Virus record (IMG/VR): IMGVR_UViG_3300047673_000352
Direction: 5' to 3' (one strand)
DNA from: an uncultured virus (IMG/VR IMGVR_UViG_3300047673_000352)
Lineage: Duplodnaviria > Heunggongvirae > Uroviricota > Caudoviricetes
Length of the DNA: 64,000 nt
The translations under genes were made by a program, and so were the position numbers. The notes beneath the pieces were generated by a model. That model had not been told where the DNA came from and made no database searches. It saw only the letters and a list, made by a program, of their open reading frames with translations. Within the stretch, counting starts at the first letter, position 1. Each line of letters begins with the position of its first letter. Positions 32,698-61,515 of this stretch are shown here, in pieces.

Positions 32698-32698
32698 C

Positions 32699-33188: not shown

Positions 33189-33439
33189 TCGACGCTCTGG
33201 TCCAAGCGCTCATCGCGGCCATGTCGTTGTCGGCAACGTACTTGAGCCTTCATCCGACGCGCCAGAAATGGGCGTGCTTCTTCGGGCTGTCCGTCCAACC
33301 TCTTTGGATGCTCAGCACGTCCACAAACCACCAGTGGGGCATGTTCACGCTTTGCTTTGTCTACGGATTCATTTGGCTCCGTAGCTTTTGGCGTCACTGG
33401 TCAACCCCAGTAATTGAATTACTTTGGAGAACGAAATGA
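33185..33439 (+). CDS. Small multi-helix membrane protein
   Basis: Three hydrophobic segments; ATGA overlaps at both ends. Confidence 0.6.
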   Translation: MIDALVQALIAAMSLSATYLSLHPTRQKWACFFGLSVQPLWMLSTSTNHQWGMFTLCFVYGFIWLRSFWRHWSTPVIELLWRTK

Positions 33440-33861
33440 ACCAACTCAAGTTTGCAGACCTTCGACTGGCCAACACGCTGCGCCTTCCGCAATTCAAGAA
33501 CGCTCAAGGAGAACCGGCGCACTCGCAACCGGACGGCAGCGATTGGTCACCGGCTGACTGGATGGTCGCTGTCGTTGGAGAACTTGGCGAGGCCGCGAAC
33601 CTGATGAAGAAAATTCGTCGCGGCGACTTCGCCACCATGTGCGATCTGCTGGAGGCAAAGGAGAAGCTGCAGAAGGAGTTTGCCGACTTCATCACGTACG
33701 CCGACATCATGGCGGCGCAGTTCGGCATCGACCTTGGCGAAGCCGTCATGCAAAAATTCAACGAAGTCTCGCGACGCGTTGATTCCACGGTGTTCATGCA
33801 AGAGGCCGCGACCGGTGCGTGCGTCTATGTCTTCGACAAATCAGAAACGGACGCAGCTTAA
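33436..33861 (+). CDS. mazG: MazG-like nucleotide pyrophosphohydrolase
   Basis: GELGEAAN..KK..R...EFAD...Y...GIDL..A...KFN. Confidence 0.85.
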   Translation: MNQLKFADLRLANTLRLPQFKNAQGEPAHSQPDGSDWSPADWMVAVVGELGEAANLMKKIRRGDFATMCDLLEAKEKLQKEFADFITYADIMAAQFGIDLGEAVMQKFNEVSRRVDSTVFMQEAATGACVYVFDKSETDAA

Positions 33862-38312: not shown

Positions 38313-38335
38313 CTCAACTTTAGGGATTGCACATT

Positions 38336-40648: not shown

Positions 40649-40649
40649 G

Positions 40650-41855: not shown

Positions 41856-41870
41856 ACAGGAGCTTCTGAG

Positions 41871-42131
41871 ATGGACCAACGAATAGTGTGCGCCGCGAAT
41901 CGCAAGAGGTTCACCGGCCAAGTCGTTCTGGGCATACGCCACTGGGACGCGTTCATGGACCATATGGACTCCGAAGGTGATCCAGTGGACCAGGGCTTCA
42001 TCGACAACCGTGGCAATTTCCTCTCGCGCACCGAAGCGTGGAAGGTGGCCTTGGCCGCTGGTCAGATCATCCGTCGCTGCGGTGGCGATGAAACGAATGG
42101 CGGTACGCTCTACTCAGAGAACCTGTACTGA
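41871..42131 (+). CDS. Conserved phage protein
   Basis: RIVCAA...G.RH.D...QGFID..G.FL.R.EA...LYSE.LY. Confidence 0.7.
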   Translation: MDQRIVCAANRKRFTGQVVLGIRHWDAFMDHMDSEGDPVDQGFIDNRGNFLSRTEAWKVALAAGQIIRRCGGDETNGGTLYSENLY

Positions 42132-42132
42132 C

Positions 42133-42375
42133 ATGATGCACCAGCCAGCGAACCTTGAGTCAATCGGCGCGCGAGTTAGGCGTGTCCGACTGGCCAAGGG
42201 CATCGGCCTTCGAGAGCTTGCCTTGAAGATTCACACGAGCACAGCCGTCATCTGGGCGCTGGAGACCGGCAAGCGCTCGACCAACATGTTCACGTTGATC
42301 GACGTGGCGAAGGCGCTGGGCGTTTCGATTGACTACCTGGCGTATGGTTCGAACTACGGAGTGTTCAATAAATGA
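42133..42375 (+). CDS. XRE/Cro-family helix-turn-helix regulator
   Basis: IGARVRRVR..KG....ELA.........LE.G......TL..VAKALGVSIDYL. Confidence 0.85.
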   Translation: MMHQPANLESIGARVRRVRLAKGIGLRELALKIHTSTAVIWALETGKRSTNMFTLIDVAKALGVSIDYLAYGSNYGVFNK

Positions 42376-42587
42376 TCAAGTCAAAGAAAGGCCGGTATAA
42401 ATACCAGTTCCAATACTCCTTTGACAATCTGTCGTACAAAGTTACAGTCACCGGTAATGATCAGCGACAAGCGCGAATACGTGCCAAAGAAGAGGTTGAT
42501 AGGCGTTGGCGCAAGTCTGGTCGATCTTCACCGACTGGCTGGGATATGACGGTGTTGCAAACGGACGATCCTGCATGGAGTTCCTAA
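42372..42587 (+). CDS. Hypothetical protein
   Basis: Last ORF before the convergent hairpin. Confidence 0.55.
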   Translation: MIKSKKGRYKYQFQYSFDNLSYKVTVTGNDQRQARIRAKEEVDRRWRKSGRSSPTGWDMTVLQTDDPAWSS

Positions 42588-42591
42588 AAAG

Positions 42592-42628
42592 AGAAGGCCC
42601 AAGAGAACTAGTGTTCCTTGGGCCTTCT
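42592..42628. terminator. Probable bidirectional terminator
   Basis: AGAAGGCCCAAG...CTTGGGCCTTCT 12-bp stem plus inner GAAC/GTTC, between convergent genes. Confidence 0.75.
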
Positions 42629-42711
42629 TCGTTTGGTATGGGCAACGTTAAGTATTTCCGAAATCAGCCCAACCTCGCCACATTTCCTTGTGTGCAAATA
42701 GCACGAACGGA

Positions 42712-43380
42712 TTACTTCTGTGCCGTTAAGAACTCTTCCGACTCCTTGGAGCCAGGTTCGGGGTGACGGCCAGTCAGATTCGGCTTGGCGTTCGGCGTAG
42801 GCTGGTTGGTATCCTCATAGAACTCCTTCAGCGACCGGCCTGCGCGCGTCCTGCCAGAGTCGTCAATCACCGTGATGCCGAACAGCACGTTGAGTTCCTT
42901 CATCGCGCTGAGCTTCGTGGAGCACTTGGTGAACGGGTTGTTCATCAGGCTTACAAGCTCATAAACGGCCAGCTTCGGACCATACATCTCTTCGAGCTTC
43001 ACCACGCCGAACTTCTGCGCGAAGACCTTCCGATACACCATGTTGTGTTCGAGCGCTTCGATGCGCGCGTACAGGTGCAGGTCTGCGTAGTCAGTGCCGA
43101 AGACGCGGGTGAATGCGCGCTCTGCGTTCCAGCCAATCACGCGATAGTCTGCGTAGTCGCTCACCAGCTTAATGTTTAGCTCAGCGAAGCGTTCGGACCT
43201 GAACTGCAACGGCGACATTACGTTGGTCGTCGTGATGTCGCGTGGCGGTTGGCCGTCCTTGTCCTCATCCGCAAAGTCTTTGGCGGACTGGCTGATGTCA
43301 TCGCCTTCGTTGTCCCATGGGCTTTGGCTCTGCTGCTCCTTGGGGCGCGGGCGATTGTTCGGGTTACGTTGGCGTGGCAT
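42712..43380 (-). CDS. terS: Terminase small subunit (E217/PB1 type)
   Basis: ARI.A.E.N..YRK.F...LSA.KELNVL..IT..D.SG.TR.GR.L..FY resembles E217 TerS as recalled; same position downstream of the primase-helicase. Confidence 0.75.
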   Translation of the reverse strand: MPRQRNPNNRPRPKEQQSQSPWDNEGDDISQSAKDFADEDKDGQPPRDITTTNVMSPLQFRSERFAELNIKLVSDYADYRVIGWNAERAFTRVFGTDYADLHLYARIEALEHNMVYRKVFAQKFGVVKLEEMYGPKLAVYELVSLMNNPFTKCSTKLSAMKELNVLFGITVIDDSGRTRAGRSLKEFYEDTNQPTPNAKPNLTGRHPEPGSKESEEFLTAQK

Positions 43381-43412
43381 GATGCTATCCGGAGAGTGAT
43401 CTGTTGTTCGCG

Positions 43413-43432
43413 ATTGTACTGGCGTGATGTGT
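43413..43432 (-). promoter_or_regulatory. Putative late promoter ACAC-N10-TACAAT for terS
   Basis: Shared motif and spacing. Confidence 0.55.
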
Positions 43433-43742
43433 TTGTGTGTGGCTCAGCGCGAACTGTGCGAGAGGTTTGCCGCGCTCTTCGGTTTGGGCCTTGTTGCTTG
43501 CGTGTCGCCGCGTGTGCTGTGATGTTCCGGTGCGATGATATTGCCGCGTGCTTGGCTGAGGATGAGAGCGCGGTCTTGGCGCAATGCGACATGCCGCAAG
43601 GTGAACTGCCCATCGCCTGCTGGCGTACGCAAATAGCGCTGGCCGCGTGTTCACGTCAAGTGTTGGACACGCAGATTGGCCAAATAAAAAGTCACCGCGA
43701 GGGCAATCGACCGCAAACCCAGAGCGGACGCAGGTTAGTGGG

Positions 43743-47081: not shown

Positions 47082-47348
47082 AGCTGTCTGCCTCGTTACT
47101 ATATTGTTGCAGGTCGTTATTACCGCTCAACCTGGAAAGCGGGCCGGTCTAAATTTCTTAGATCGGATTATAGGACCGCCTGAGTGGTACAATAATACAA
47201 CTTTCCAACTATTATTTACCGCGTATTAAATAGGAGAAAGGCGTTCTTTCTGACGCTTAAACTTCCACCGCTCAGCGATATACTCAACTCGCTCGCTCAT
47301 GTGAACGGGTCCGGACATACAGCCGGTGAACAAGTGAAAGGAAGAAGT

Positions 47349-48128
47349 ATGGGCACAATATCAAGGCGCGTTCTATTAGACGGCTCTGTGCGGTTCCAAG
47401 CTAAGGTGCGCAGAAAAGGGCACAAAACCCTCAGCGCGACGTTTCGTGAAGAGTCTATGGCAAAGGCCTGGGCTGACATTCAAGAGGTCCGGTTGGATGG
47501 CTTCTCGCTCGATATCAACTTGGACACGCTAAGTAGCATCACGGTTGGAGATATCATAAAGAAGTACGCCGACGAAGTAGCGCCGAAGCACCACGGCTAC
47601 GAAAGCGAGCGCTTCACTATCCAGCGCTGGCTCAGATTGCCGTTTAGTCGCTCACCGGTCAGCGCCTTCGATCAGTCAGCGTTAGAGATGTATGCGCGCT
47701 GGCGCTCTTCTGCTGTCACAAAATCAACGCTCCGAAGAGAATTCAACATACTGTCTGCGGTATTCAGGAACGCGACTTCGATTGGCGTCCGTTGCCATGA
47801 ACTCAACTTCAGATCATTGACCGCTGATGAACTTATCGGCATCTATGTGCTTTCATTTCCGAACGGCATGAAGTACGTGGGTCAGTCGGTCAGCATATCA
47901 TCCCGCCTGTACCAGCACGAGTACGCCTTAAGGCGCAACCGCCACTACAACGCGCGCTTGCAGTCTACAGCCAATCAATTCGGAATAGACGCGATGAGTG
48001 TCGATGTGTTCCGGTGCAGTCGCGAACAGCTTAACGACGAAGAGCAAAGGATCATAGAACTCGTCGCGCCTGATCGACTTCTCAACCACGTAAACGCTCC
48101 ATGCACAAGAATAAAGGCCCAATCATGA
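47349..48128 (+). CDS. Chimeric protein: tyrosine-integrase N-terminal and core-binding domains fused to a GIY-YIG endonuclease
   Basis: FQAKVRRKG....SATF....AKAWA; TVGDII.KY..EV.P; STLRRE.NILSAVF; then GIY...YVGQS....R..QH...E...LN. Confidence 0.8.
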   Translation: MGTISRRVLLDGSVRFQAKVRRKGHKTLSATFREESMAKAWADIQEVRLDGFSLDINLDTLSSITVGDIIKKYADEVAPKHHGYESERFTIQRWLRLPFSRSPVSAFDQSALEMYARWRSSAVTKSTLRREFNILSAVFRNATSIGVRCHELNFRSLTADELIGIYVLSFPNGMKYVGQSVSISSRLYQHEYALRRNRHYNARLQSTANQFGIDAMSVDVFRCSREQLNDEEQRIIELVAPDRLLNHVNAPCTRIKAQS

Positions 48129-50030: not shown

Positions 50031-50828
50031 ATGTCGCACGGTCATCACCACAACGTATCGGACGCGGGTCACTCGCACAACATCGCTCAGTCGGTTCAAA
50101 CGGCTGTGCAAGAAACGTCGGTGGAGTTGACCGCCGAACAGAAGAAGGCGCAGGACGACGCCGCGAAGCAAGCAGCGAAAGAAGCCGCGAACGCCGCCAA
50201 GGAAGCCAAGCGCAAGGCTGCTGCCGAAGAGCGCGAAGCGAAGAAGGCAGCGAAGCTCGCAGAGCGCGAAGCCGCGAACGCGGAGAAGGAAGCAGAGCGC
50301 CAGGCGAAGGCCGCAACGCGCGAAGCAGAAAAGGCGCAGAAGGCTGCTGAACGCGCCGAAAAGCTCGCTGCCGAGAAGGAAGCGAAGAAGGCCGAACGCG
50401 AAGCCGCAAAGCTGGCGAAGAAGGCTGAAACGGACGCGGCCAAGGAAGCGAAGAAGGCCGAAACGGCAGCTGCGAAGGAAGCCGCGAAAGAAGCGCGCAA
50501 GGCTGAAGTGGCACGCCGCGCGGCCATGGTCGAAGAGCGCAAGGCGCAAACGAAGATCGACGGCGAGCGCCGCAGCAAGGCCACGCATGTCGTCTACACC
50601 GGCAACGGCATCAGCAACCCGCAGTCCACGTCGATCCGTGGCAAGGTTCTCGAACACATCCGCGAGAACTACAGCGTGGGCGACAAAATCGCCATCGAAA
50701 CGCTCGCGAAGGATTGCAAGCCGCTGCTGTACGGCGCGTCCATCCGTTCGTTCCTGTCGAAGCTGGAAGAGCGCTGCCACCTGGACTTCGTGACCGAATC
50801 GACGGACGAGCCGGCAGCAGCTGAATAA
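50031..50828 (+). CDS. Ala/Glu/Lys-rich coiled-coil protein with small globular C-terminal domain
   Basis: Low-complexity AEK repeats; TATAAT at 49968, AAGGAG RBS and its own terminator. Confidence 0.8.
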   Translation: MSHGHHHNVSDAGHSHNIAQSVQTAVQETSVELTAEQKKAQDDAAKQAAKEAANAAKEAKRKAAAEEREAKKAAKLAEREAANAEKEAERQAKAATREAEKAQKAAERAEKLAAEKEAKKAEREAAKLAKKAETDAAKEAKKAETAAAKEAAKEARKAEVARRAAMVEERKAQTKIDGERRSKATHVVYTGNGISNPQSTSIRGKVLEHIRENYSVGDKIAIETLAKDCKPLLYGASIRSFLSKLEERCHLDFVTESTDEPAAAE

Positions 50829-50910: not shown

Positions 50911-51867
50911 ATGGATAAAACCATCATCGTTGGGGCGGGACTCGCTGGCCTCATCACCGCATGCAAGATCAAGGACGCGACCATCTATGAGGCCGGAAAA
51001 CAGCTGGAGCAGCACAAGGCTCTTCTGCGCTTTCGCGATGAGTCCGTTTCTCATCTCACTGGCATTCCTTTCCGTGCTGTTACCGTCCACAAGGGAATCC
51101 ACATCGGAGCGCAAACGTATGACCGATGCACGCCCGCCTTTGCGAACGCGTATGCCCGGAAGGTCACCGGCAAGATCGCGGCTGACCGCAGCATCTGGAA
51201 TCTCGACACGGTTGTGCGTTACATTGCGCCGGAAGACTTCTACCATCAGCTGGTCACTCGCCATAGTTCGCGCATCCGGTGGGAGACTGCGATGCACGCG
51301 GATTCCATCGTGTACGGCCAGAAAGAATACAAGTTCGTCAATACCGCGCCGCTGCCTGTGATCATGAAGGCGTGCGGCTTGCACCAGGGCAGCTTGCCTG
51401 AAGCGCTTTTCGAATCCAGCAAGATCGAAGTGCTGCGCTATCGCCTTCCCGCTGGCACGGATGTGTTCCAAACGCTTTACTTCCCAGAGTCGGATATCCG
51501 CTGCTTCCGCGCGTCGATCACCAGCGACCTGCTGATTGTCGAGCGCGTCAAGGGCATCGAGTGCAACCGCTTTCCGGAGTCTGTCGAGCTATCGTACATC
51601 TGCGCGGCTTTCGGCCTGGATGCGTTCGCGGACCTGACTGAGATTGAACGCGTGGACCAGCGCTATGGTAAGATAATTGAATTGCCGCGTGATACTCGCG
51701 AAGCCATTCTGTTCGAACTGACGCACGCGTACAACGTGTTCAGCATCGGTCGGTTCGCGACGTGGCGCAATCTTTTGCTGGACGATGTGGTTAAGGATAT
51801 CGACATTGTTCAGCAACTCATGGCAGCGTCCTCGTATGGGCGCGCAAAGGTGCTGGCGCATCGGTAG
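50911..51867 (+). CDS. FAD-dependent protein, UDP-galactopyranose-mutase-like fold
   Basis: IIVGAGLAGL...IYE Rossmann motif; NTAPL; C-terminal GRFATWRNLLLDDVV. Confidence 0.7.
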   Translation: MDKTIIVGAGLAGLITACKIKDATIYEAGKQLEQHKALLRFRDESVSHLTGIPFRAVTVHKGIHIGAQTYDRCTPAFANAYARKVTGKIAADRSIWNLDTVVRYIAPEDFYHQLVTRHSSRIRWETAMHADSIVYGQKEYKFVNTAPLPVIMKACGLHQGSLPEALFESSKIEVLRYRLPAGTDVFQTLYFPESDIRCFRASITSDLLIVERVKGIECNRFPESVELSYICAAFGLDAFADLTEIERVDQRYGKIIELPRDTREAILFELTHAYNVFSIGRFATWRNLLLDDVVKDIDIVQQLMAASSYGRAKVLAHR

Positions 51868-51876
51868 GAGAGCGAA

Positions 51877-52101
51877 GTGAGCCGTCAACCGTATCACATC
51901 AACCAAGGATCGCAGCTGTATAGTGATCTAATCACCGTCTTACGTCTTCTTGGAGAAGGCGGCACACCCATCTCTTTATTTCAGCGACCAGACGGAAAGA
52001 CCTGGGTTCTGGGCGTGCGCGGAAAGACGTTTGAAGACCTCTCGCTGAACCGCGTAATCGAGCGAGCAGGCCGCGAGCTTACAACGGTATTCGACCGTTA
52101 A
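51877..52101 (+). CDS. Hypothetical protein
   Basis: AGGAG RBS with GTG start. Confidence 0.6.
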   Translation: MSRQPYHINQGSQLYSDLITVLRLLGEGGTPISLFQRPDGKTWVLGVRGKTFEDLSLNRVIERAGRELTTVFDR

Positions 52102-52115
52102 CAAAGGAGTGTATC

Positions 52116-52700
52116 ATGATGTTCTTTACAGAACCCGCTGTATCGCAACACCCGCTTTACATCTTCGATCTGGGCGGCACGCTGGCCTTTATCGACCATC
52201 GCCGTCACCTGGTAACTGCACCTGACGATAATAGCTGTCGCCACTGCTTCCAGGGCCATGCATACGACGATGCAAACGGATCGGCGCAATGCCCTGCTTG
52301 CAAGGGCACCGGAAAGTTCGTGCCTGACTGGGATGCCTTCTTCGAAGCCTGTGACCGTGACGCGCCCAATTGGCCCGTCATCGGCACGATGCTGCAGTTG
52401 TACAGCGTTGGTTGCGACATCCGTATCTGGAGCGGTCGCAGCGACGCTGTGAAGCAGAAGACGCTGATGTGGCTGCACGCGGCAACCCGGATTCCGCTGA
52501 TCAAGCTGGAGATGATGCTGAAGATGCGCGCGGCTGACGACTTCACGCCAGACGACCAGCTGAAGCGCAAGTGGCTCAACCTCATGGGCAAGCAGGAGCG
52601 TGCACGCCTCTCCGCTGTGTTCGATGACCGCAACAAGGTTGTCGCAATGTGGCGTGAAGCGGGCGTGCCGTGCTTTCAAGTCGCTCTAGGAGAGTTCTGA
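52116..52700 (+). CDS. HAD phosphatase (T4 PNK 3'-phosphatase-like) with inserted Zn finger
   Basis: FDLGGTL, SGR, D...K, FDDR.KVV.MWR..G..CFQV; CRHC...CPACKGTG insert. Confidence 0.8.
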   Translation: MMFFTEPAVSQHPLYIFDLGGTLAFIDHRRHLVTAPDDNSCRHCFQGHAYDDANGSAQCPACKGTGKFVPDWDAFFEACDRDAPNWPVIGTMLQLYSVGCDIRIWSGRSDAVKQKTLMWLHAATRIPLIKLEMMLKMRAADDFTPDDQLKRKWLNLMGKQERARLSAVFDDRNKVVAMWREAGVPCFQVALGEF

Positions 52701-52924
52701 TGGACTTGCGCAAACTCAGAGCCGCGAATGTTCTCATTGACGAACTCGATGAGATCGACGGCAAGATCAATAAGGTGAAGAACCACCTTGGCGTCACGCT
52801 TTATGGCGCGTACCAGGATGAGGTCATCTGCGATGTTGCACGTCCTGCGCTCCTTGCACACTTCAATGAAAAGCGTGCACAAATCGTTGCGCAACTCAAG
52901 GAATTGGGCGTAACTGCTGATTGA
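52700..52924 (+). CDS. Hypothetical protein
   Basis: AGGAG RBS; TGATG coupling. Confidence 0.6.
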   Translation: MDLRKLRAANVLIDELDEIDGKINKVKNHLGVTLYGAYQDEVICDVARPALLAHFNEKRAQIVAQLKELGVTAD

Positions 52925-53020
52925 TTCCACTCGCTTAGAACAGAGGTAGTCAGTTACGATTACCTCACTTAAACGAATTGCCTAAGTAGTTCTTACCAAC
53001 ACAGAAAGGAGCAGAAAGAC

Positions 53021-53473
53021 ATGCAAACGAACCGCGACCCGATGCACGCCGCTGGCGGCGACTTCATCACCGGCCAAATGCAGCGCGAGCAGGCCACGAG
53101 CAATCAAACTTTGACGGCTCGCCAGCGCTCCAAGCGCGTGACGCTGACCATGAAGGACGACTATGCGCTGGTCCAGTGGATGCACAACCGCGAGCCGCAG
53201 TATGGCGAAACGCCGCAAGACATCTTCGTCCAGGCCAGCGCCGCGCTGAACATCCCAGGCCTGAACTCCGACCACATCCGCACGCGCCTGATCGCCCTGG
53301 CGGATACGTTGCCCAAGGCGAAGTGCGCACCGCTCTCGTTGGAACAGCGCATCGACCGGCTGGAGCGTCTGGGCGTGATCATCGCACGTCTGCGCACGAA
53401 CGGCGATTCTGGCACGGTGGCAGAACTCGCGTTCCTGGCGGACTTCGAGAACGCCGTTGCTCAAGCATCTTAA
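53021..53473 (+). CDS. Hypothetical protein
   Basis: AAGGAG RBS. Confidence 0.6.
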   Translation: MQTNRDPMHAAGGDFITGQMQREQATSNQTLTARQRSKRVTLTMKDDYALVQWMHNREPQYGETPQDIFVQASAALNIPGLNSDHIRTRLIALADTLPKAKCAPLSLEQRIDRLERLGVIIARLRTNGDSGTVAELAFLADFENAVAQAS

Positions 53474-53502
53474 ATCGTCGGCAAGCAATTAGGAATCCGA
53501 AC

Positions 53503-54366
53503 ATGCAAGTCAAACTCATCAGCCACACGCCTGACGCGCTGAACCTTCTCATCGGCACGAAGACCACGCGCATGCGCGGCAAGTCGCCGGAAGAGATGAC
53601 CGACGCAGAGCGATACGAGCACTTCAGCTACATGCTCGACACGATCAAGTCGCCGTTTGAATTCGTTGACTACATCTTCGAGATCACCGGCGTGAGCAAG
53701 AATTTTTCGCATCAACTCGTGCGTACACGTACTGGCGCATACCAGCAGGAAACGAGTCGCGCTCTGGAAGTTACGGAAACGGTGCGGCCTGACGCGTTTG
53801 CATGGCCCGATCTTTCCGATGAAGCACCTTACGATCAATCGACGGCCAAACAATGCTCGCTCGCAAGCTTGTTTGATGACGCCGTTGCGGACGCCAACGC
53901 GCACTACCAGCAGTTGATCGCAGCTGGGGCCGCGCTCCAAGACGCTCGCGCCGTCCTTCCGTCGAATATGCAGACGGCAATCAAGGCGAAGTTCAACCTG
54001 CGTACGATGTCCGATATGGCCAAGAACCGGCTCTGCGCGCGTACGCAAGGCGAATACCAGCAGGCGTACCGGCTCATGCGCGCGGCTGTTCTCGCCGTCC
54101 ATCCGTGGGCTGATCCGTTGTTGCAAGTCGCCTGCGTTGCGACCGGCCAGTGCGCCTTCCCGCGTTGGGGCGGAAAGGTTCTGAATCCGAATGACGCTGC
54201 TGACAAGGCGGTGATCGAGAGGCGTGGTGGAGCGATCTACCAATGCCCGCATTACCGTCCGTGGATGGACCTGGCGAAGCAGAAAGAAGAGTTGCGCATT
54301 TCGTTCTGGAGTCGCGAGGAACTGGCACAAGCCAACCCGGTCGCAAAGAACGGCAAGAGCATGTAA
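53503..54366 (+). CDS. thyX: Divergent flavin-dependent thymidylate synthase homologue
   Basis: SPFEF..Y.FEI.GVS....HQLVR.R, DAR.VLP, N.R........R.C...Q.E; signature altered to RTR-x7-T. Confidence 0.8.
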   Translation: MQVKLISHTPDALNLLIGTKTTRMRGKSPEEMTDAERYEHFSYMLDTIKSPFEFVDYIFEITGVSKNFSHQLVRTRTGAYQQETSRALEVTETVRPDAFAWPDLSDEAPYDQSTAKQCSLASLFDDAVADANAHYQQLIAAGAALQDARAVLPSNMQTAIKAKFNLRTMSDMAKNRLCARTQGEYQQAYRLMRAAVLAVHPWADPLLQVACVATGQCAFPRWGGKVLNPNDAADKAVIERRGGAIYQCPHYRPWMDLAKQKEELRISFWSREELAQANPVAKNGKSM

Positions 54367-54404
54367 CATTCCGTAGTACAACGAATAAGAAAAGGAACAA
54401 AGCC

Positions 54405-55151
54405 ATGAAGAAAGTTGCTGTAGTAGCCGCCCTAGCGTTTGCGTCCGTGGGAGCGCACGCTGAGTCCTGGTTCAGCTTTGAAGCTGGAGTAGGTGCGTCA
54501 TCCTACACGCGTGATGGCCCAGGCATCTACTACAGCCCTGGCTTCAAGTACAGCGCGCCGGTCAACGCTTTCGCATTCCGCGTGGGCGTCGTATCCACCG
54601 TCATCGACGCTAAGCCGCGCTCTTTCGTTCCTGGCTTGCGCATTCACGCCGACTATCTCAACTTCGGTGGCATCAAATGGTCATCCGACTCGCCGCAGGA
54701 TTCGAGTGACTTCACAGATCGCGGCATGGTCGGCGGCTACGATCCGAAAGCGAAGGCCTGCATCAACCATACGTGCGGGCAAATGTCTGACTTCGAATCG
54801 TTCGGACGTATCCAGGCGATTGCGCTGACGCTGGAGCCGTATTGGGCGCTGAAGAACGGCTGGACCGTAGGCGTCGAAGTTGGACCGGCGCTGTATCGCG
54901 ACACATGGGTTACAAGCGCAACCGTTCTCACGGACGGCTTCAAGCTTGGCCCGCCCGGAACGGTCCACCACCTGACAACGGAGCCGAAGTTGCACATGGG
55001 CACGGTCGTCGGCGCGAGCGTTTCGAAAGGCCCGTTCAGTGTCCGGTACACGTACATATTCGCGCGCCCGTCACAGACCGGTGCCCAAGATTGGCAATCG
55101 CAATCGGGTGTGACAGGGGCGCATATGCTGACCCTCAACTACACCTTCTAA
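54405..55151 (+). CDS. Outer-membrane beta-barrel protein
   Basis: Signal peptide MKKVAVVAALAFASVGAHA; alternating beta strands; terminal LTLNYTF beta-signal. Confidence 0.8.
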   Translation: MKKVAVVAALAFASVGAHAESWFSFEAGVGASSYTRDGPGIYYSPGFKYSAPVNAFAFRVGVVSTVIDAKPRSFVPGLRIHADYLNFGGIKWSSDSPQDSSDFTDRGMVGGYDPKAKACINHTCGQMSDFESFGRIQAIALTLEPYWALKNGWTVGVEVGPALYRDTWVTSATVLTDGFKLGPPGTVHHLTTEPKLHMGTVVGASVSKGPFSVRYTYIFARPSQTGAQDWQSQSGVTGAHMLTLNYTF

Positions 55152-55188
55152 ACGGTATTATCAACCCCTTCTCTCCAAGGTATATCAA

Positions 55189-56052
55189 ATGCCCCGTACC
55201 ATTAACGACAACATCGCCGTCTTCGATATCGACGGCTGCATCAGCGATGACGTGTGGCGTCGCGCCCGCATTCCGGAAGGCGCTGAGCACTCGCTTCAAT
55301 ACGAATACTATCACGCCGGTTGCAGCGATGATCCGCCCTTGGCCATCGGCTCAGAAGTGCTGCGCACGCACATCGCTCGCGGCGACTTCATCGTGTTCTG
55401 CACGGCACGTCCGATGAAGGTTTCTGGCGAGACATCGAAGTGGATCAGCGATCATTTCGGCATCTCGCCGGATGGTGACTTTGTCATCTTGATGCGTGGG
55501 GACGGCGACAACCGCAGCGCCGTCGAAGTGAAGCGTGAAATGGCAAGCTTCTTGCGCGGGTTCGAAGACCAGACCAAGCGCAAGGTCATCGCGGCGTACG
55601 ATGACCGACAAGACATCGTGGACATGTACCGCGAGAACGGATACATTGCGCAGCTGCTGGACGCGAACGGGCTGACGCCGCTGGCACCGGGCGCATCCTT
55701 TTTGCCGGAGGCAGACGCCGCGCTGCAGAAGCCGCTGAAGTTGCTTGGCGTGGCGGAGATTCTGGAAGAAGCCGCGCAGACCTTCCGCGAACGCAACGCT
55801 GTCTATCGCGACAACGCTGTGAAGGTTGGCGACTTGATGGCGGTGCTTTTCCCGCACGGCGTGACGCTTCGGACGGCTAAAGATCACCGCGCGTATCATC
55901 TGTTTGAGCTGATGATCGTCAAGCTGACGCGCTTCGTCAACAGCGATTTGCGTCACCAAGACTCGATCCGCGATCTGGCCGTGTACGCGGCGATGGTCGA
56001 GAGCCTTGTTGACCAGCACGAAATCGAAGTGCGCGACGAGTGGAGCGAATGA
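55189..56052 (+). CDS. HAD phosphatase fused to an all-alpha nucleotide-modification-associated (NTP-pyrophosphatase-like) domain
   Basis: FDIDGC, TAR, K, YDDR; C-terminal EILEEA......R...Y...K..R......H.DS..DLA.YA. Confidence 0.75.
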   Translation: MPRTINDNIAVFDIDGCISDDVWRRARIPEGAEHSLQYEYYHAGCSDDPPLAIGSEVLRTHIARGDFIVFCTARPMKVSGETSKWISDHFGISPDGDFVILMRGDGDNRSAVEVKREMASFLRGFEDQTKRKVIAAYDDRQDIVDMYRENGYIAQLLDANGLTPLAPGASFLPEADAALQKPLKLLGVAEILEEAAQTFRERNAVYRDNAVKVGDLMAVLFPHGVTLRTAKDHRAYHLFELMIVKLTRFVNSDLRHQDSIRDLAVYAAMVESLVDQHEIEVRDEWSE

Positions 56053-56231
56053 CCGTGGCCATCGACATCGTACGCACGCGCGACCGTGCGAAAATCTTCA
56101 GCGACGAACTGGCAAAGATCGTCCAGAAGCACGTGGAAGAAACCACCGGACGCCAGGTGCACTCCGTCGAATTCCACGCAGGCCGCAACGAACTTGGTGC
56201 GGTAACAATTCACTTCGAGTTCAAGGATTAA
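56049..56231 (+). CDS. Hypothetical protein
   Basis: ATGA coupling. Confidence 0.55.
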   Translation: MTVAIDIVRTRDRAKIFSDELAKIVQKHVEETTGRQVHSVEFHAGRNELGAVTIHFEFKD

Positions 56232-56233
56232 GC

Positions 56234-56911
56234 ATGACCAAGCACATTCTCGTAACCGGTTCGTCAACCGGCCTGGGCGCGGCAGTCTGCGTTGCACTCC
56301 GTGATGCCGGTCATTTCGTGCACGAGTACGATGTGATCAACGGCGATGACGTTCGCAATCCGTCGCGCTGGCTCAAAGACCTGCCGCAGCTGGATGCGAT
56401 CATCAACTGCGCAGGCATCAACGACAACCGCTGGTTCGAAGAGGTTCAAGAGCGCGATTTTTTCGAACTGATGGACGTGAATGCGTTTTCCTTTGTCCGG
56501 ATGACGCAGGCCGTCTTGCCGCAGCTGAAGCGTTCGCGTGGTTTTGTGATCAACATAGTGTCCAATGCTGCACACATGCCAATGACGTCGAGCCTTTCAT
56601 ACAACGCGTCGAAGGCTGCAGCGCTGATGATCACGAAGCAGATGGCGCACGAACTGACGCCGAAATACGGCATCACCGTCTTCAGCGTGTCACCGAACAA
56701 ACTGGCGGGCACCGGTATGTCGAAGGCTATCGAAGCCAACGTGTGCAAGGTGCGCGGCTGGTCGCCGGAATACGCGGCTGAGTATCAGAAGAAGGCGTTG
56801 ATGCACGGTCTGGAAACGCCGCCCGAAGCCGTGGCGGAACTCATCAGCGGTCTGTTGACGGTCGGCAACGGGCTGTATCTGTCCGGTTGTGACATTCCGT
56901 TTGGAAAATAA
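56234..56911 (+). CDS. Classical short-chain dehydrogenase/reductase
   Basis: TGSSTGLG, NCAG, catalytic Ser and YNASK. Confidence 0.9.
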   Translation: MTKHILVTGSSTGLGAAVCVALRDAGHFVHEYDVINGDDVRNPSRWLKDLPQLDAIINCAGINDNRWFEEVQERDFFELMDVNAFSFVRMTQAVLPQLKRSRGFVINIVSNAAHMPMTSSLSYNASKAAALMITKQMAHELTPKYGITVFSVSPNKLAGTGMSKAIEANVCKVRGWSPEYAAEYQKKALMHGLETPPEAVAELISGLLTVGNGLYLSGCDIPFGK

Positions 56912-56921
56912 GGAGTAGGAA

Positions 56922-57176
56922 ATGAAAGGCAAGGAAATGCTTGGCTACACGATGCGCGATATCGTCACCGGCTTCGTCGGCGTTGCAGTCGGCCACGTTG
57001 AGTACATCACCGGATGCGATCAACTTCTGCTGGTGCCGTCCGTCGATGAGAGCGGCAAGCTGCGCGAGTCCAATTGGTTCGACACGCAGCGCTGCGAACT
57101 CCTTCCGACTCAGCCTGTCGTGACCGTGGACAACAGCAAGTTCAACGGACCCGACAAGGAAGCGCCCAAGCGCTGA
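56922..57176 (+). CDS. Small conserved phage protein
   Basis: D.VTGF.GVA....EY.TGC.Q..L.P...WFD..R. Confidence 0.65.
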   Translation: MKGKEMLGYTMRDIVTGFVGVAVGHVEYITGCDQLLLVPSVDESGKLRESNWFDTQRCELLPTQPVVTVDNSKFNGPDKEAPKR

Positions 57177-57182
57177 ACGCAG

Positions 57183-57398
57183 ATGTCTCTCGAAAAGGAT
57201 TTGCGCGAAGCCGTCACGGAACTCGCATTCGAAGACGAAGCCGCTGCCCAAGTGGTTTTGCTCTTCGTTCGCGGCATGACCGGCGACACCCATGACCAGT
57301 CCGCGTCTTCGATGACGTTCCACCTTGGGCAAGCGCTCATGGAACACGAAGGCGACCCGGAAGACTCGATCAACGCAACACCAACTCAGCAAGGTTAA
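57183..57398 (+). CDS. Hypothetical acidic protein
   Basis: Operon packing. Confidence 0.5.
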   Translation: MSLEKDLREAVTELAFEDEAAAQVVLLFVRGMTGDTHDQSASSMTFHLGQALMEHEGDPEDSINATPTQQG

Positions 57399-57401
57399 GC
57401 A

Positions 57402-57926
57402 ATGCCACACTTTCGTGTAGAACAAATCGCCCTGTGCGCAGACAACTCCGTGCGCGCGCGCAACTTCCTGGCTGATCTGGGCCTGTCCGAATGGCACCAC
57501 GATACGGTCGTTGCACGCGGCTCCGTCTTCACGGAGAAAGACTGCGAGAACACCGCGCATCTGGCCTTCAACTATCAGGCCGGCAACGGTTCGGACTCTG
57601 GCGCGGGCAAGCCGCTGGAACTCGAAATTCTCGATTATGTCGAAGGCGATAACTGGATGGAAGTATCGCGCGAGTCTGGCGAAACGGGCCAATTCGGCGC
57701 GGTGAGCCACTTGGGCATGCACGTGACGGAAGAAGAGTTGACCGGCTTCGACCTCGTGATGCAAAAGCACGACATCAAGATCGCCCAGCGCGTCGTAACG
57801 CAGTCGCACACCAACCCGGTGATCAAGGACTCGCGTCGCTACAAGTACGTGATCTATGACACGCGCTTCTTGATCGGTGTCGATCTGAAGTTCATCGTGC
57901 GTCTTCCGTACAATTCGGCGCAGTAA
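57402..57926 (+). CDS. VOC-superfamily protein (glyoxalase / methylmalonyl-CoA-epimerase-like)
   Basis: EQIAL...LELEIL.Y..G.NW...SHLGMHV...Y..YDT...IG...KFI. Confidence 0.7.
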   Translation: MPHFRVEQIALCADNSVRARNFLADLGLSEWHHDTVVARGSVFTEKDCENTAHLAFNYQAGNGSDSGAGKPLELEILDYVEGDNWMEVSRESGETGQFGAVSHLGMHVTEEELTGFDLVMQKHDIKIAQRVVTQSHTNPVIKDSRRYKYVIYDTRFLIGVDLKFIVRLPYNSAQ

Positions 57927-58102: not shown

Positions 58103-58669
58103 ATGTTATTTTCCGTGTTTGACTGGGAAACCACCGGCCTGCCATTTCATCCGGACGCCGAACTATCCAAACAGCCGCGCGCCATCGAATTCGGTGGCAT
58201 CATTACGGACGGCGAAGAGATTCTGGACACGTTGGAGTTCATCTGCAATCCTGGCATTGCCATCGAAGCGATCATCACCGAAATCACCGGGTTGAAGAAT
58301 GAAGACCTGGAAGACAAGCCGCCCTTTGAGCATTTCATTCCGCAACTCACCGGATACTTCGCCGCGACGCGCGGACGGATCGCGCACAACCTGTCGTTCG
58401 ATAAGGGCATCTTAGCCTTCGACCTTCGACGCCTGGGAAAGACGCTGGATGAAGTCTGCTGGCGCGGCTCGAACGGCGATGCCATCGAGATTTGCACGGT
58501 CGAGCAAACCTTCATGAAGTACGGCAAACGGATGCGCCTGCAAGACCTTCATGAACTCCACTTTGGCCCGTACGTCCAGAAGCACAGAGCGCTGGATGAC
58601 GTGATCTTGCTGCACAAAATCGCCAAGGCAGAAGGCGTCTATGAAGCGTTCAAAGGAGTCGCGCGATGA
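58103..58669 (+). CDS. dnaQ: DEDDh 3'-5' exonuclease (epsilon-like)
   Basis: FDWETTG, AHN..FD, HRALDD. Confidence 0.9.
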   Translation: MLFSVFDWETTGLPFHPDAELSKQPRAIEFGGIITDGEEILDTLEFICNPGIAIEAIITEITGLKNEDLEDKPPFEHFIPQLTGYFAATRGRIAHNLSFDKGILAFDLRRLGKTLDEVCWRGSNGDAIEICTVEQTFMKYGKRMRLQDLHELHFGPYVQKHRALDDVILLHKIAKAEGVYEAFKGVAR

Positions 58670-61515
58670 GCATGCCGCAACTGAGGGTTCGCAGCGGGTA
58701 TTCGTACCGCAATGCGTATGGACGCCACCCAGAGATTGTCGAGCGTTTGAAGGAGTTGGGTTGCGAACGCGCCGCACTCGTGGATGCCGGTACGTGGGGT
58801 CACGTCCGCTTCGAGAACGCGCTGAAGAAGGCCGAACTGACGCCGATGTTCGGCATGGAGATTCCGGTGTTGACGCTGGGCGAGGACGGCGAGCCGGTAG
58901 GATTTAAGCCAGTCGCCTGGGTGCTGGCAAAGGACACGAAGAAGTTCTACAACCTCACGACGAAGAGTGTGGCAAATAAGGGGCTTACTGATGCGGAGCT
59001 TTCTGGCGCAGATGGTGTCATTCGCTTTTGCGGTGGCGCGCACACCCTCAGTCTGGGCGCATACGATTACATCGACGTCAACCCGGCTTCGTTCACCCAC
59101 GCCTATCACGCCGTCCAACTCGCGCGGCGTACCGGTAAGCCGATGGTCATCACATCTTACAACGACATGCCGCACCCGAAGCACCAGCGGTTTGCGTATG
59201 CTTGGGAAGTTCGTGACTCTGTCGGAGTGCGCCATATAGCGTCTGAGGACGAGATTTGGGAACAGGTGAAGTGGTTCATGACGCGCGACGAGTTCACGCT
59301 GGCCGTAGCCAACACGTACGCGGTCGCTGAGCAGATGGATGGGGTATCGCTCCAGAAGGCACCGCTGATCCACCTAGAAGGCGATCTGGTGGCACTAGCG
59401 CGCGAAGGGCAACGGAGCCGCCTGACGCGCGGCCATATTACCGAATGGACGGACGAATATGAAGCGCGCTTCCTCATGGAAATCGAGCAGATTCAACTCA
59501 AGAAGTTTGATTCATACTTTCTTGTGGTGTCTGATCTGGTGCGGTACGCGAAGGAGCATATGCTGGTCGGTCCCGCTCGCGGCTCGTCTGCAGGCTCGCT
59601 GGTGTGCTATCTGCTGGGCATCACCGAAGTTGACCCGATCCCGCACGACTTACTATTCCAGCGATTCATTGACATTAGTCGCGCTGACTTGCCTGACATT
59701 GACATCGACTTTACGGACACCAAACGACATCTGGTTTTTGAGTACCTTCAGGATAAGTACGGTGCCGCCAACGTCGCGAAGCTGGGCAATATTAACACAC
59801 TGCAAGCTAATAGTGTGATGGCGCAGGTCGGCAAACGCTTTGGAGTGCCTTACAGTGAAACGGCAAACGTCAAGAATGCGCTCATCGTCTACTCATCTGG
59901 TGACGCGCGTTACGGGAAGGGTCTGCAGGATACCTTTGACGGCACGGAGCCTGGCCAGGAGTTTATGCGCCGCTTTCCCGAAGCCGCGCAGTGCATGGGC
60001 GATCTTGAGATTCATCCATCTCACACCGGTGTCCACGCTGCCGGCATCCTGGTTTGTAATGACCCGGTCAGCGACTACTGCACAGTCAACGTCGAAGGTG
60101 TGGCCCAGATCGACAAGCCAGATTCCGAATACCTTAACCTGCTCAAGATCGACGCCTTGGGTCTTCGCACCCTTGGCATTATCGAAGACAGTGGTGTGGT
60201 CACCGCAGAACAACTGTTTTCGCTTAAGCTGGACGACCCGGAAGTCTTCAAGGTCATCAATGAAGACCGTGTCAGCGGCATCTTCCAGTTCGAAGGCGAT
60301 GCGGTGCGGTCGGTTACTCGCTCTGTTAATGTCGATAGGTTCTCGAAGATTGACAACTTAACGGCGTTGGCGCGGCCAGGCCCGCTTGCGTCCGGTATGG
60401 CACAGAAGTACATCGCCCGCGCCGCTGGCAAGGAGCCGGTTACATACGATGTGCCGCAGCTGGAGAAGTACCTGAAGGACACGTTTGGCGTCTTCTTGTA
60501 CCAAGAGCAGATCATGTCGGTGGTGAAGGAAATCGGCCTGTTTGACTGGGTCAAAACCTCTGCCGTCCGAAAGGCCATGTCAGGGAGAAAAGGCGAAGAG
60601 TACTTCAACAAGATGGGCGAGGACTTCGTTGCTGGCGCGACTTCCCAAGGAGTCCCGATTGACCAGGCGAAGAAAATCTGGCAAGAAATGGTTACTTTCG
60701 GGTCTTGGGGCTTCAATAAGTCTCACTCCGTTTCTTACGCTGTCGTCACATACTGGACCTGCTGGCTCAAGCGCTATCACAAACTTGAGTTTGCTGCTGC
60801 GTGCCTTCGTGCCGCGAAGGACGATGAACAGACAATCGCCATTCTCCGCGAACTCGCAAAGGAAGGGGTTTCGTACACGCCGATTGACCCTGAATTTTCC
60901 GAGATGCATTGGAAAGTAGCTGATGGACGACTCATCGGCGGAATCCAGAACGCGAAGGGCTTTGGCCCCGTCAAGGCAACTAAGTATATCCAAGCGCGCG
61001 AGAAGTGGAAAGAACGGCTCTCGTTTGGGCCGCTGACGAAGAAGGAGTGGAAGGAGTATTCCAAGCACGTCGAATCGCTCGCCAAGGCTGAGGTTATGTA
61101 TCAAGACCTCGCAGAAGCGCATACGAAGTGGGGTCACTTCTACAAGAACCCTTCGCTGGTCGGCGTAACGTCCGGCAATCCGATCATCAACATGAAGGAG
61201 TGCGGCGACCGCGACGAGTGTCTGGTCATTGCTAAGCTCACCAAAAAGATTCTCGCGGACGAGAACGAAGCAATCCGGATTAAGAAGCGTGGCGGCAAGG
61301 TTCTTAAGGGTGAAACTCAGTTCATCGACTTGATGATGGTGGACGATTCAACCGACTCGCCAATGCGGTTCCGTGTGCGTCCGGATAAGTACAAGCAGCA
61401 TGGCAAGCCTATCGCGGAAACCGCGCCGCTTGGCTCGTGGTTCCTGGTCCGCGCCTGGAAGATCAGTGGCATCGACATGTTCATTATCAAGAACGTTAAA
61501 AGGATTGACCAATGA
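58666..61515 (+). CDS. dnaE: DNA polymerase III alpha (family C)
   Basis: GP.RGS.AGSLV, PDIDID, HAAG, K.D.LGL, YQEQIM, FNKSH. Confidence 0.95.
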   Translation: MSMPQLRVRSGYSYRNAYGRHPEIVERLKELGCERAALVDAGTWGHVRFENALKKAELTPMFGMEIPVLTLGEDGEPVGFKPVAWVLAKDTKKFYNLTTKSVANKGLTDAELSGADGVIRFCGGAHTLSLGAYDYIDVNPASFTHAYHAVQLARRTGKPMVITSYNDMPHPKHQRFAYAWEVRDSVGVRHIASEDEIWEQVKWFMTRDEFTLAVANTYAVAEQMDGVSLQKAPLIHLEGDLVALAREGQRSRLTRGHITEWTDEYEARFLMEIEQIQLKKFDSYFLVVSDLVRYAKEHMLVGPARGSSAGSLVCYLLGITEVDPIPHDLLFQRFIDISRADLPDIDIDFTDTKRHLVFEYLQDKYGAANVAKLGNINTLQANSVMAQVGKRFGVPYSETANVKNALIVYSSGDARYGKGLQDTFDGTEPGQEFMRRFPEAAQCMGDLEIHPSHTGVHAAGILVCNDPVSDYCTVNVEGVAQIDKPDSEYLNLLKIDALGLRTLGIIEDSGVVTAEQLFSLKLDDPEVFKVINEDRVSGIFQFEGDAVRSVTRSVNVDRFSKIDNLTALARPGPLASGMAQKYIARAAGKEPVTYDVPQLEKYLKDTFGVFLYQEQIMSVVKEIGLFDWVKTSAVRKAMSGRKGEEYFNKMGEDFVAGATSQGVPIDQAKKIWQEMVTFGSWGFNKSHSVSYAVVTYWTCWLKRYHKLEFAAACLRAAKDDEQTIAILRELAKEGVSYTPIDPEFSEMHWKVADGRLIGGIQNAKGFGPVKATKYIQAREKWKERLSFGPLTKKEWKEYSKHVESLAKAEVMYQDLAEAHTKWGHFYKNPSLVGVTSGNPIINMKECGDRDECLVIAKLTKKILADENEAIRIKKRGGKVLKGETQFIDLMMVDDSTDSPMRFRVRPDKYKQHGKPIAETAPLGSWFLVRAWKISGIDMFIIKNVKRIDQ

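Follow-up and report, generated by a model that had tools for sequence, protein, structure and literature searches.

What is made by the enzyme genes that an uncultured tailed phage keeps directly before the genes of its exonuclease and DNA polymerase? The question is raised by positions 50911 to 57926 of the IMG/VR virus record IMGVR_UViG_3300047673_000352, a stretch of 64,000 nucleotides that is referred to below, in its entirety, as the window. An initial annotation had listed there a Glf-like flavoprotein, a HAD phosphatase, a ThyX with altered active-site motifs, a HAD domain fused to an all-alpha domain associated with nucleotide modification, an intact short-chain dehydrogenase/reductase (SDR) and a VOC enzyme, and had proposed an undescribed pathway of DNA base modification. 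Pfam and PHROG scans, the translations of open reading frames (ORFs) and fold searches place all of these genes on the plus strand, in that order and directly before dnaQ-dnaE. The best reading of the block, here called the cassette, is a DNA-nucleotide hypermodification unit attached to the replication operon. A core trio of flavoprotein, ThyX-like protein and HAD/DUF6378 protein would make a non-canonical thymidine, which the SDR and VOC proteins would tailor in the clade to which the window belongs; we consider this proposal, taken as a whole, modestly probable.

The window is most of the genome (64 kb of about 71 kb) of an uncultured PB1-like phage, as a flavoprotein identical to that of the window is encoded on a contig of 71,208 bases. 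PHROG and Pfam scans, the latter covering 101 ORF translations, reveal the gene set of a myovirus (tail sheath, baseplate, portal and terminase), followed by replication genes for primases, a Dda-like helicase, DnaQ, a DnaE-type polymerase and an SNF2 helicase. Its DnaE is 75.6% identical to that of Luteibacter phage Pluto, about 69% to those of Xanthomonas Carpasina-like phages, about 68% to those of Serratia MyoSmar-like phages, about 65% to those of the Wifcevirus phages of E. coli and about 60% to that of Pbunavirus F8. A megablast search of the block against 50,697 phage records gave no match, and its relatives are detectable at the protein level only.

Two of these relatives link the cassette to DNA chemistry. 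The virion DNA of the Pbunaviruses F8 and 14-1 has been described to contain a hypermodified thymidine in TG context that replaces about a quarter of T, and the new nucleosides of 362 and 390 Da found in these phages were read as a tetrose sugar-alcohol derivative and a cyclised aldopentose derivative, according to the available text of the report (Yee et al., bioRxiv 10.1101/2025.03.31.646159; PMC12191111). In the same text, F8 DNA is resistant to five enzymes with TG in their sites and is cut by five without it, and the family is presented as one without known modification genes, whose modification would escape gene-based prediction (10.1101/2025.03.31.646159). No gene assignment for Pbunavirus hypermodification was found in the literature, including two papers that cite Yee et al., a search that did not cover the extended data of the preprint.

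Of 88 F8 proteins queried, 41 have a tblastn match in the window. When structural and replication genes are set aside, the only enzyme-family genes common to F8 and the window are those for gp57 (HAD/DUF6378), gp59 (ThyX-like) and gp65 (flavoprotein). The ThyX-like proteins are 57% identical and have the same motif, RTRTGAYQQETSRA, the flavoproteins are 45% identical, as compared with 60% for DnaE, and the order flavoprotein, ThyX-like, HAD/DUF6378, exonuclease, polymerase is the same in the window and in both Pbunaviruses. In contrast, F8 and 14-1 both lack the SDR and VOC genes, which the window has, and thymidine chemistry has been measured in the former phages; the window phage, if modified, is predicted from its SDR and VOC genes to have a different side chain. 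For the MazG (gp049) and the ligase (gp048) of F8, tblastn found no match in the 64-kb window, and these genes may lie in the remainder of the genome of about 71 kb.

The association of the core genes extends well beyond the Pbunaviruses. Relatives of the flavoprotein are encoded by 438 IMG/VR stretches; those 80 with the highest similarity were taken with up to 10 kb on each side, and their genes were called by tblastn with the window proteins (E <= 1e-5). Of the loci, 66 extend 3 kb or more downstream; the ThyX-like gene is found in all 66, the HAD domain in 64 and the C-terminal domain that follows it in 65. Dereplication at 90% flavoprotein identity yielded 55 clusters, 35 of which have at least 8 kb downstream. 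In this set, the ThyX-like protein, the C-terminal DUF6378-like domain, DnaQ and DnaE are each present in 35/35 loci and the HAD domain in 33/35, with gene order and strand identical throughout; one short locus, L023, is rearranged. The SDR is found in 24/35 loci and the VOC protein in 25/35, and the two are coupled, as both are present in 24 loci and both absent from ten, the VOC gene occurring alone in one. Upstream sequence of at least 4 kb is available for 26 of the 35 loci. In 12 of them the upstream genes of PB1-like phages (helicase, gp66-like) are missing, yet the trio and DnaQ-DnaE are kept in all 12.

Among named phages, Pluto, Carpasina and Bas99 have all five genes in the order of the window (flavoprotein, ThyX-like, HAD/DUF6378, SDR, VOC), followed by those of the exonuclease and the polymerase; phages in culture that carry this form are the Wifcevirus isolates Bas98-101, Serratia MyoSmar, Xanthomonas Carpasina and Luteibacter Pluto. 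In the unrelated Rhizobium jumbo phage RHph_TM30 (Kleczkowskaviridae), all three core genes lie within 7 kb, beside genes for a dUTPase and a ribonucleotide reductase; its flavoprotein is 37% identical to that of the window, its ThyX-like protein 38%, with the motif RNRTNSYAQQTMRV, and its HAD protein, which has the same C-terminal domain, 38%.

In addition to these constant parts, the loci have a variable slot. Between the flavoprotein and DnaQ genes of the 35 loci, 103 ORFs of at least 80 codons did not match the known components; 52 of them, the longer non-nested ones picked by eye, were run through Pfam, and 17 had a family match. Class-I SAM methyltransferases were found in four loci (L085, L076, L088 and L086) and NodU/CmcH-type carbamoyltransferases in two (L079 and L086), all of which are without SDR and VOC genes, while an Nmad5 domain occurs in a locus that has both (L060). 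A MazG (L056, L086) and a pyrimidine-dimer glycosylase similar to T4 endoV (L042, L086) occur with or without the SDR/VOC pair. The remaining matches are a DUF4406 protein (L012), a DUF932 protein (L059) and homing endonucleases (L046, L017, L061 and L013). A constant core accompanied by exchangeable group-transfer and redox enzymes would be the pattern of a tailoring pathway rather than that of a housekeeping supply of dTMP, and the SDR/VOC pair together with the interchangeable slot genes may give rise to differing side chains among relatives.

The ThyX-like protein (53503..54366, +), the product of the second core gene, has 287 residues with its start at 53503, the span first assigned to it falling within a longer GTG ORF. 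It passes the Pfam Thy1 model PF02511 (97.8 bits, cut-off 24.8) and marginally misses the NCBIfam thyX equivalog TIGR02170, by 0.4 bits (87.5 bits, cut-off 87.9). It belongs to the same fold family as the canonical ThyX proteins of T. maritima and M. tuberculosis (PDB 1kq4 and 3gwc; profile match E 1e-24 to 3e-19), from which it differs by a C-terminal extension of about 60 residues and by the replacements His to Ile, RHR to RTR and Tyr to Ala. The ThyX motif RHR..S....S.RY is not found as such in the window, which reads RTRTGAYQQETSRA where solved ThyX chains have RHRTASVNEISGRY, RHRHFSYSQLSQRY and RHRIASYNELSGRY.

These replacements characterize a clade. A search of 1.84 billion cluster representatives retrieved 1439 relatives of the ThyX-like protein at E <= 0.001, 292 of them at E <= 1e-10; 134 of the best 150 representatives were aligned, 16 shorter than 180 residues having been dropped. 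Residues were mapped by aligning a profile of 44 ThyX-like members to T. maritima ThyX, whose numbering is used here. At the position of the folate-stacking H53, the window has Ile, and I, L or V is found in 120 of the 134 sequences, His in six. H79, the middle residue of RHR, is Thr in the window, with T in 71 sequences, H in 26, Q in 17, S in eight and N in five, and the catalytic Y91 is Ala in the window and Tyr in nine of the 134. In contrast, R78, R80, R90, R147 and R174 all correspond to Arg in the window and are kept in 125-132 of the 134 sequences; among the 44 profile members, R74, R149 and R176 of the ThyX-like protein are invariant, and R76 and R86 nearly so. We take R80, R147 and R174 of the T. 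maritima enzyme to be residues of the dUMP site, and the arginines aligned with that site are thus kept in the window protein. As for the other positions, the ternary complex has H53 stacked against the pterin of the folate and hydrogen-bonded to Y91, the mutation of which slows down flavin oxidation during methylation about 1000-fold, while R78 contacts the flavin and R90 adjoins Y91, as reported in the available text of PMC11940539. The alignment suggests that the ThyX-like clade still binds a deoxyuridylate-like nucleotide, and makes it unlikely that it performs the canonical folate-dependent reaction in the canonical way.

The first core gene (50911..51867, +) codes for a flavoprotein of 318 residues with an N-terminal GxGxxG. 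It has no match in Pfam (GLF or NAD_binding_8), NCBIfam or the PDB by sequence, be it in single-sequence or profile searches. An AF2 model based on an alignment of 45 homologues (pLDDT 87), for which Foldseek retrieved two-domain flavoproteins, has the fold of UDP-galactopyranose mutase (Glf/UGM) with an FAD-binding Rossmann domain, a placement with which the ESM Atlas look-alikes agree. The description of the protein as Glf-like holds true at the level of the fold, not at that of the sequence, and the window flavoprotein is about 150 residues shorter than the matched UGM chains (465-517 residues). At E <= 1e-5, the protein collection searched contains 1431 members of this family, and tblastn found the flavoprotein in 362 phage records, 292 of them from Pseudomonas. 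A predicted complex between the flavoprotein and the ThyX-like protein received scores of 0.08 and 0.00, the mark being 0.32, a result that is counted neither for nor against their interaction.

The third core gene (55189..56052, +) encodes a HAD phosphatase of 287 residues fused to a helical domain (phrog_4889, E 3e-56). Its HAD domain matches HAD_PNKP with 39.6 bits against a cut-off of 27.6 (E 7e-10), and the profile of the family matches the phosphatase domain of T4 polynucleotide kinase (E 4.4e-9). The catalytic set is intact, D13, D15, T72, K115, D138 and D139 being invariant in 32 aligned family sequences. The helical C-terminal domain, in which the initial annotation had seen a domain associated with nucleotide modification, is weakly DUF6378-like: its match to the model (PF19905) reaches 17.1 bits in the window against a cut-off of 27.1 (E 0.0066), and 28 of the 32 aligned members match at E <= 0.1, the best at 1.1e-5. 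This gene is the fastest-changing member of the cassette, with 58% identity to its counterpart in L012 (14904-15839), which together with L011 is the closest IMG/VR relative of the window, as compared with 86-87% for the ThyX-like, SDR and VOC proteins. The length of its interdomain linker is highly variable.

The two optional genes follow. The SDR (56234..56911, +), of 225 residues with its start at 56234, is of the classical type, with both the cofactor motif TGSSTGLG and the catalytic motif YNASK intact. It matches adh_short with 115 bits (cut-off 26.6; E 3.4e-33) and falls far under the cut-offs of all specific NCBIfam models. Proteins 61-68% identical to it are encoded by Wifcevirus, Serratia, Pantoea, Erwinia and Luteibacter phages; the 40 tblastn matches listed are all PB1-like relatives from outside Pseudomonas, and the ten genera named do not include it. 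The VOC-fold protein (57402..57926, +; 174 residues) has no Pfam or PHROG match, and sequence and profile searches of the PDB gave nothing significant, so that its assignment comes from structure prediction: an AF2 model (pLDDT 94) has the paired beta-alpha-beta-beta-beta fold, and its best Foldseek match is the putative methylmalonyl-CoA epimerase 3gm5 (E 3.5e-8, TM 0.70), with MMCE and HPPD chains behind. Six residues, Q8, E73, E75, H103, H107 and H136, are invariant in the family, and PF13669 is carried by one of 120 listed homologues. By tblastn, the protein is found in 55 phage records, none of them from Pseudomonas.

How might these proteins work together? The core trio would turn a deoxyuridine or thymidine nucleotide into a thymidine analogue with a sugar-like side chain, as in F8 and 14-1. 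Because its dUMP-binding arginines are kept, the ThyX-like enzyme is proposed to act on dUMP prior to replication; the phage polymerase would then incorporate the modified nucleotide, and a separate DNA-level step would set the sequence context. This order is modelled on phages PhiW-14 and SP10, in which, according to the available text of PMC5889632, 5-hmdUMP is produced by a homologue of thymidylate synthase and built into DNA by the polymerase, the base being converted there afterwards with sequence specificity. The TG context of the Pbunavirus modification calls for such a sequence-reading step on DNA, and as these two phages show how an enzyme acting at the nucleotide level can be reconciled with a sequence context, a two-stage route is favoured. 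In the clade of the window, the SDR and VOC proteins would tailor the side chain by carbonyl reduction and by epimerisation or isomerisation next to the carbonyl, and the window phage is predicted to make a product other than the nucleosides of 362 and 390 Da. Since F8 and 14-1 have neither gene, the pair is not needed in those phages and would at most perform a clade-specific tailoring. We infer from these comparisons that the cassette genes make the modification, that the window phage is modified as well, and in which order the steps occur.

The scheme put forward by the initial annotation, a ThyX-based route that adds a sugar-derived or hydroxyalkyl group to a pyrimidine nucleotide, agrees with the hypermodified thymidine of F8 and 14-1, with the trio that they share with the window and with the non-canonical ThyX. 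That the pathway was undescribed is half true, as the modification is in print for relatives, to which the cassette adds candidate genes. Tailoring by SDR and VOC survives in a restricted form, for a clade, as the pair is dispensable for the published modifications. As to the expected co-occurrence across phages, the trio is conserved and SDR and VOC are coupled, while the first HAD gene and a MazG located elsewhere in the window do not belong to the conserved parts.

Several observations weigh against the hypermodification proposal. No candidate for the TG-specific DNA-level step was recognised in the cassette, and the SDR and VOC genes are absent from the sole phages with measured chemistry. 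The window phage is known from metagenome assemblies alone, and the link between cassette and modification rests on sequence comparison. All dUMP-site arginines are kept and the thyX cut-off is missed by very little, so that plain dTMP synthesis is possible. The synteny sample consists of the 80 loci nearest to the query, and the resolution of the flavoprotein tree is poor, good support being obtained for 5 of its 33 inner branches; the supported branches force only two independent SDR/VOC changes where the best tree needs 6-7, and a test of gain and loss of the pair along the tree, with two usable pairs on supported branches, was underpowered. Both the co-occurrence of SDR and VOC and the synteny may thus largely reflect shared descent. 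The idea that the C-terminal domain of the HAD/DUF6378 protein is a pyrophosphatase was abandoned, as hhalign of the family against the MazG-like ORF of the window gave a probability of 0.6%. Similarly, the difference between the 362 and 390 Da nucleosides could not be traced to a single cassette gene. The HAD/DUF6378 protein is the most divergent of the cassette between the two Pbunaviruses (F8 gp57 and 14-1 gp58 are 80% identical and differ by 16 residues in length, as compared with 94-97% identity for ThyX-like protein and flavoprotein), but differences elsewhere between F8 and 14-1 are as great or greater (57% for gp070, 73% for gp012, also gp075 and gp066); many genes diverge as much, and therefore the divergence of gp57 is not specific.

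The masses of the Pbunavirus nucleosides are compatible with more than one chemistry. That of 362 equals thymidine (242) plus C4H8O4, or 5-hydroxymethyldeoxyuridine (5-hmdU, 258) plus a tetritol (122) minus water, or deoxyuridine with a tetrahydroxypentyl group at C5, all of which are isomers; 390 equals 5-hmdU plus a pentose (150) minus water. A bolder version of the proposed route, which we regard as a long shot, draws on the third of these possibilities. UGM, like ThyX, works through a covalent N5 adduct of its reduced flavin. The ThyX-like protein and the flavoprotein might together transfer the carbonyl carbon of an aldose, or of an aldose phosphate, to C5 of dUMP via a flavin-N5 iminium, to be followed by reduction, and would thereby constitute a "sugar thymidylate synthase". 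The carbon would no longer come from folate, and the product would be a C-C-linked 5-(polyhydroxyalkyl)-deoxyuridylate; the HAD domain would remove the sugar or nucleotide phosphate, and SDR and VOC would reshape the chain. Such a deoxyuridine, with a tetrahydroxypentyl group at C5, would match the F8 nucleoside in mass (362), and is an isomer of thymidine with a tetritol on its methyl carbon. A flavin-N5 iminium is described for ThyX in the available text of PMC8989533.

Rather than making a modified nucleotide, the cassette might serve ordinary nucleotide supply, with a divergent but working ThyX, a HAD protein acting as nucleotidase or end-healing phosphatase, a flavoprotein, an SDR and a VOC protein that are unrelated auxiliary genes, and a Pbunavirus modification made by other, unrecognised genes. 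The Thy1 score, the narrow miss of the thyX cut-off and the arginines of the dUMP site speak in its favour, as do the similarity of the HAD domain to the phosphatase domain of T4 polynucleotide kinase, the neighbourhood of dUTPase and ribonucleotide reductase genes in RHph_TM30, and the names chosen by depositors, namely thymidylate synthase, polynucleotide kinase and FabG-like reductase. We nevertheless think it rather unlikely. Across the ThyX-like clade, both the His that stacks on folate and the catalytic Tyr have been lost; a flavoprotein with the UGM fold, of which dTMP synthesis has no need, is strictly linked to the ThyX-like gene in 35/35 loci; and methyltransferase and carbamoyltransferase genes are found within the cassette of relatives. 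Furthermore, outside replication and structure, the window and the chemically modified F8 have no other enzyme-family genes in common.

The role of the cassette might also be an indirect one, in which it would, for example, shape the dUMP/dTTP pool or make a sugar donor, and the enzymes that attach the group at TG sites would be found among the unannotated early genes. The TG specificity calls for a DNA-level enzyme, for which the cassette has no recognised candidate, most of the ORFs at 30 to 43 kb are without a family match, and a bona fide UGM is the sugar-donor enzyme of another phage hypermodification cluster, that for 5-hydroxycytosine glycosylation in Rhizobium phage RL38J1, in the available text of PMC13326640. 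However, few unannotated early genes are common to F8 and the window (gp009, gp012, gp076, gp077 and gp084), and in the 12 loci without the upstream genes of PB1-like phages none of these five accompanies the trio, an assessment not made gene by gene; we consider such a role improbable. The UGM fold might even place the cassette in a sugar-nucleotide or envelope-glycan pathway, for example one that alters host lipopolysaccharide, with the outer-membrane-protein-like gene of the block as a companion moron. An SDR and an epimerase-like VOC protein have the chemistry typical of sugar-nucleotide tailoring, and the outer-membrane-protein-like gene is indeed inserted in the block. That gene is present in only 1/35 related loci, however, the flavoprotein is tied to the ThyX-like protein and DnaQ-DnaE and not to glycosyltransferases or envelope genes, and no glycosyltransferase was found among the 101 ORFs scanned, all of which makes this explanation very improbable. 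On the whole, the proposed hypermodification unit accounts best for the features of the cassette.

The window carries the SDR + VOC variant of this candidate unit plus two lineage-specific inserts, both of which had been missed or incompletely described initially, as had four small ORFs. The first insert (52116..52700, +) encodes an accessory PseT-like HAD phosphatase of 194 residues (Pfam HAD_PNKP, E 2e-22), whose PseT-like nature had gone unnoticed. Its motif I is DLGGT, the second catalytic Asp being replaced by Gly, and it has a Cys4 insert of the form CxxC...CxxC. By tblastn, it matches 1305 phage records, with its closest homologues in the Burkholderia phages Maja and BcepF1 and in Xanthomonas phage Xp12-like phages, and it is found in 6/35 related loci. 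Neither of the two HAD proteins of the window has a match to a kinase family that would indicate a P-loop 5'-kinase domain, and the name "polynucleotide kinase" given by depositors to the HAD gene rests on the phosphatase domain alone; as first reported, no kinase was found among the ORF translations scanned with Pfam, nor was a glycosyltransferase. The second insert (54405..55151, +), between the ThyX-like and HAD/DUF6378 genes, encodes an outer-membrane beta-barrel-like protein of 248 residues with a signal peptide and a C-terminal Phe (...NYTF). It has no Pfam or NCBIfam match, is 87% identical in L012, and resembles stretches of Paraburkholderia phage IPK (48% identity) and Ralstonia phage PQ43W (29%), a likeness that hints at a Burkholderiales host.

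The four small ORFs, all on the plus strand, code for proteins of 74 residues (51877..52101; 40% identical in L012, at the same place, with no Pfam or PHROG match), 84 residues (52670..52924; phrog_5415, E 3.6e-11, with no match in L012), 84 residues (56922..57176; phrog_16275, E 1e-16, 86% identical in L012) and 71 residues (57183..57398; 57% identical in L012, with no Pfam or PHROG match). Between the SDR gene and the ORF of 84 residues that follows it, L012 (16516-16848) and L011 (6004-6309) have a DUF4406 gene (E 4.5e-23) that is absent from the window. The cassette is followed by the genes of the DnaQ-like 3'-5' exonuclease (58103..58669, +; Pfam RNase_T, E 6.7e-18; phrog_192) and of the DnaE-type polymerase (58666..61515, +; Pfam DNA_pol3_alpha, E 9.6e-62). 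Directly upstream of the flavoprotein gene lies that of a Lys/Ala/Glu-rich protein of 265 residues (50031-50828, +; phrog_4765), which is kept in the same position in F8 (gp66), Pluto and PB1-like IMG/VR loci and is absent from the 12 loci of other lineages. A scan of 49.2-58.8 kb for promoter-like sites found four where 3.4 are expected, and one for terminator-like sites found 16 where the expectation is 10.8 ± 4.0; neither number is informative.

Elsewhere in the window, the MazG mentioned in the initial annotation probably corresponds to an ORF of 145 residues (33424..33861, +) with weak matches to both Pfam MazG-like (18.2 bits, cut-off 27; E 0.003) and phrog_229 (E 6e-4). It lies in an early region (30000-43700) with ambiguous gene calls, in which choosing the longest ORFs yields minus-strand ORFs at 33504-34264, while plus-strand ORFs with PHROG matches are found at 33424-33861 (the MazG-like one), 34103-34525 (phrog_17384) and 34612-35016 (phrog_26577). 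Between the genes of a primase and the Dda-like helicase, an ORF of 275 residues (47301-48128, +) has a weak GIY-YIG match and matches PHROG homing endonucleases and an integrase family; it is probably a homing endonuclease. The portal/minor-head protein (21976-24339, -; 787 residues) ends in a domain of about 130 residues (650-784) that matches many PHROGs labelled as DarB-like antirestriction, endolysin or structural protein. The GC content of the window varies between 53 and 63% along its length, and its sequence is present in rhizosphere metagenome runs, five of which contain 94-100% of the sampled words, three of these five being flagged as possible sources.

Few phages are used against Pseudomonas aeruginosa as often as the Pbunaviruses. 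The hypermodification of their DNA was shown only in 2025, and a three-gene core beside the polymerase provides a short, testable list of candidate genes. If the proposal is correct, a ThyX-type enzyme and a sugar-mutase-type flavoprotein would define a route to modified thymidine in place of the ThyA, kinase and transferase logic; many uncultured phages would be modified, considering the size of the flavoprotein family; and the side chains would vary with the tailoring genes, SDR and VOC here, a methyltransferase or a carbamoyltransferase elsewhere. It would also help to account for the targeting of these phages by END nucleases and for the restriction resistance of Wifcevirus isolates, which were insensitive to the restriction-modification systems tested except EcoP1_I and for which the available text gives no known protection mechanism (BASEL, PMC11990801). 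If the ThyX-like protein turned out to be a plain thymidylate synthase, in contrast, the finding would reduce to an unusual but ordinary nucleotide-supply operon.

Among known systems, the phage T-dioxygenase route (TET/JBP, 5mYOX; PMC13229309) accounts for a post-replicative, sequence-specific change of T; Pbunavirus is not mentioned there, and the TET/JBP family has no match among the window ORFs scanned. The closer parallel is with phages PhiW-14, SP10, ViI and M6, in which, according to the available text of the two reports (Lee et al., 2018, PMC5889632; Lee et al., 2021, PMC8989533), an enzyme of the thymidylate synthase type likewise adjoins the phage polymerase, and the hypermodification is partial and dependent on sequence context, with a pre-replication step followed by steps on DNA. 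The enzymes differ, however. The route of those phages relies on a dUMP hydroxymethylase of the ThyA family, a P-loop 5-hmdU DNA kinase and aGPT-Pplase/AADT transferases; neither the ThyA-family hydroxymethylase nor the 5-HMUDK kinase nor aGPT-Pplase/AADT was found among the 101 window ORFs with Pfam or in the PHROG scans, and the window has in their stead a ThyX-type enzyme and a UGM-fold flavoprotein.

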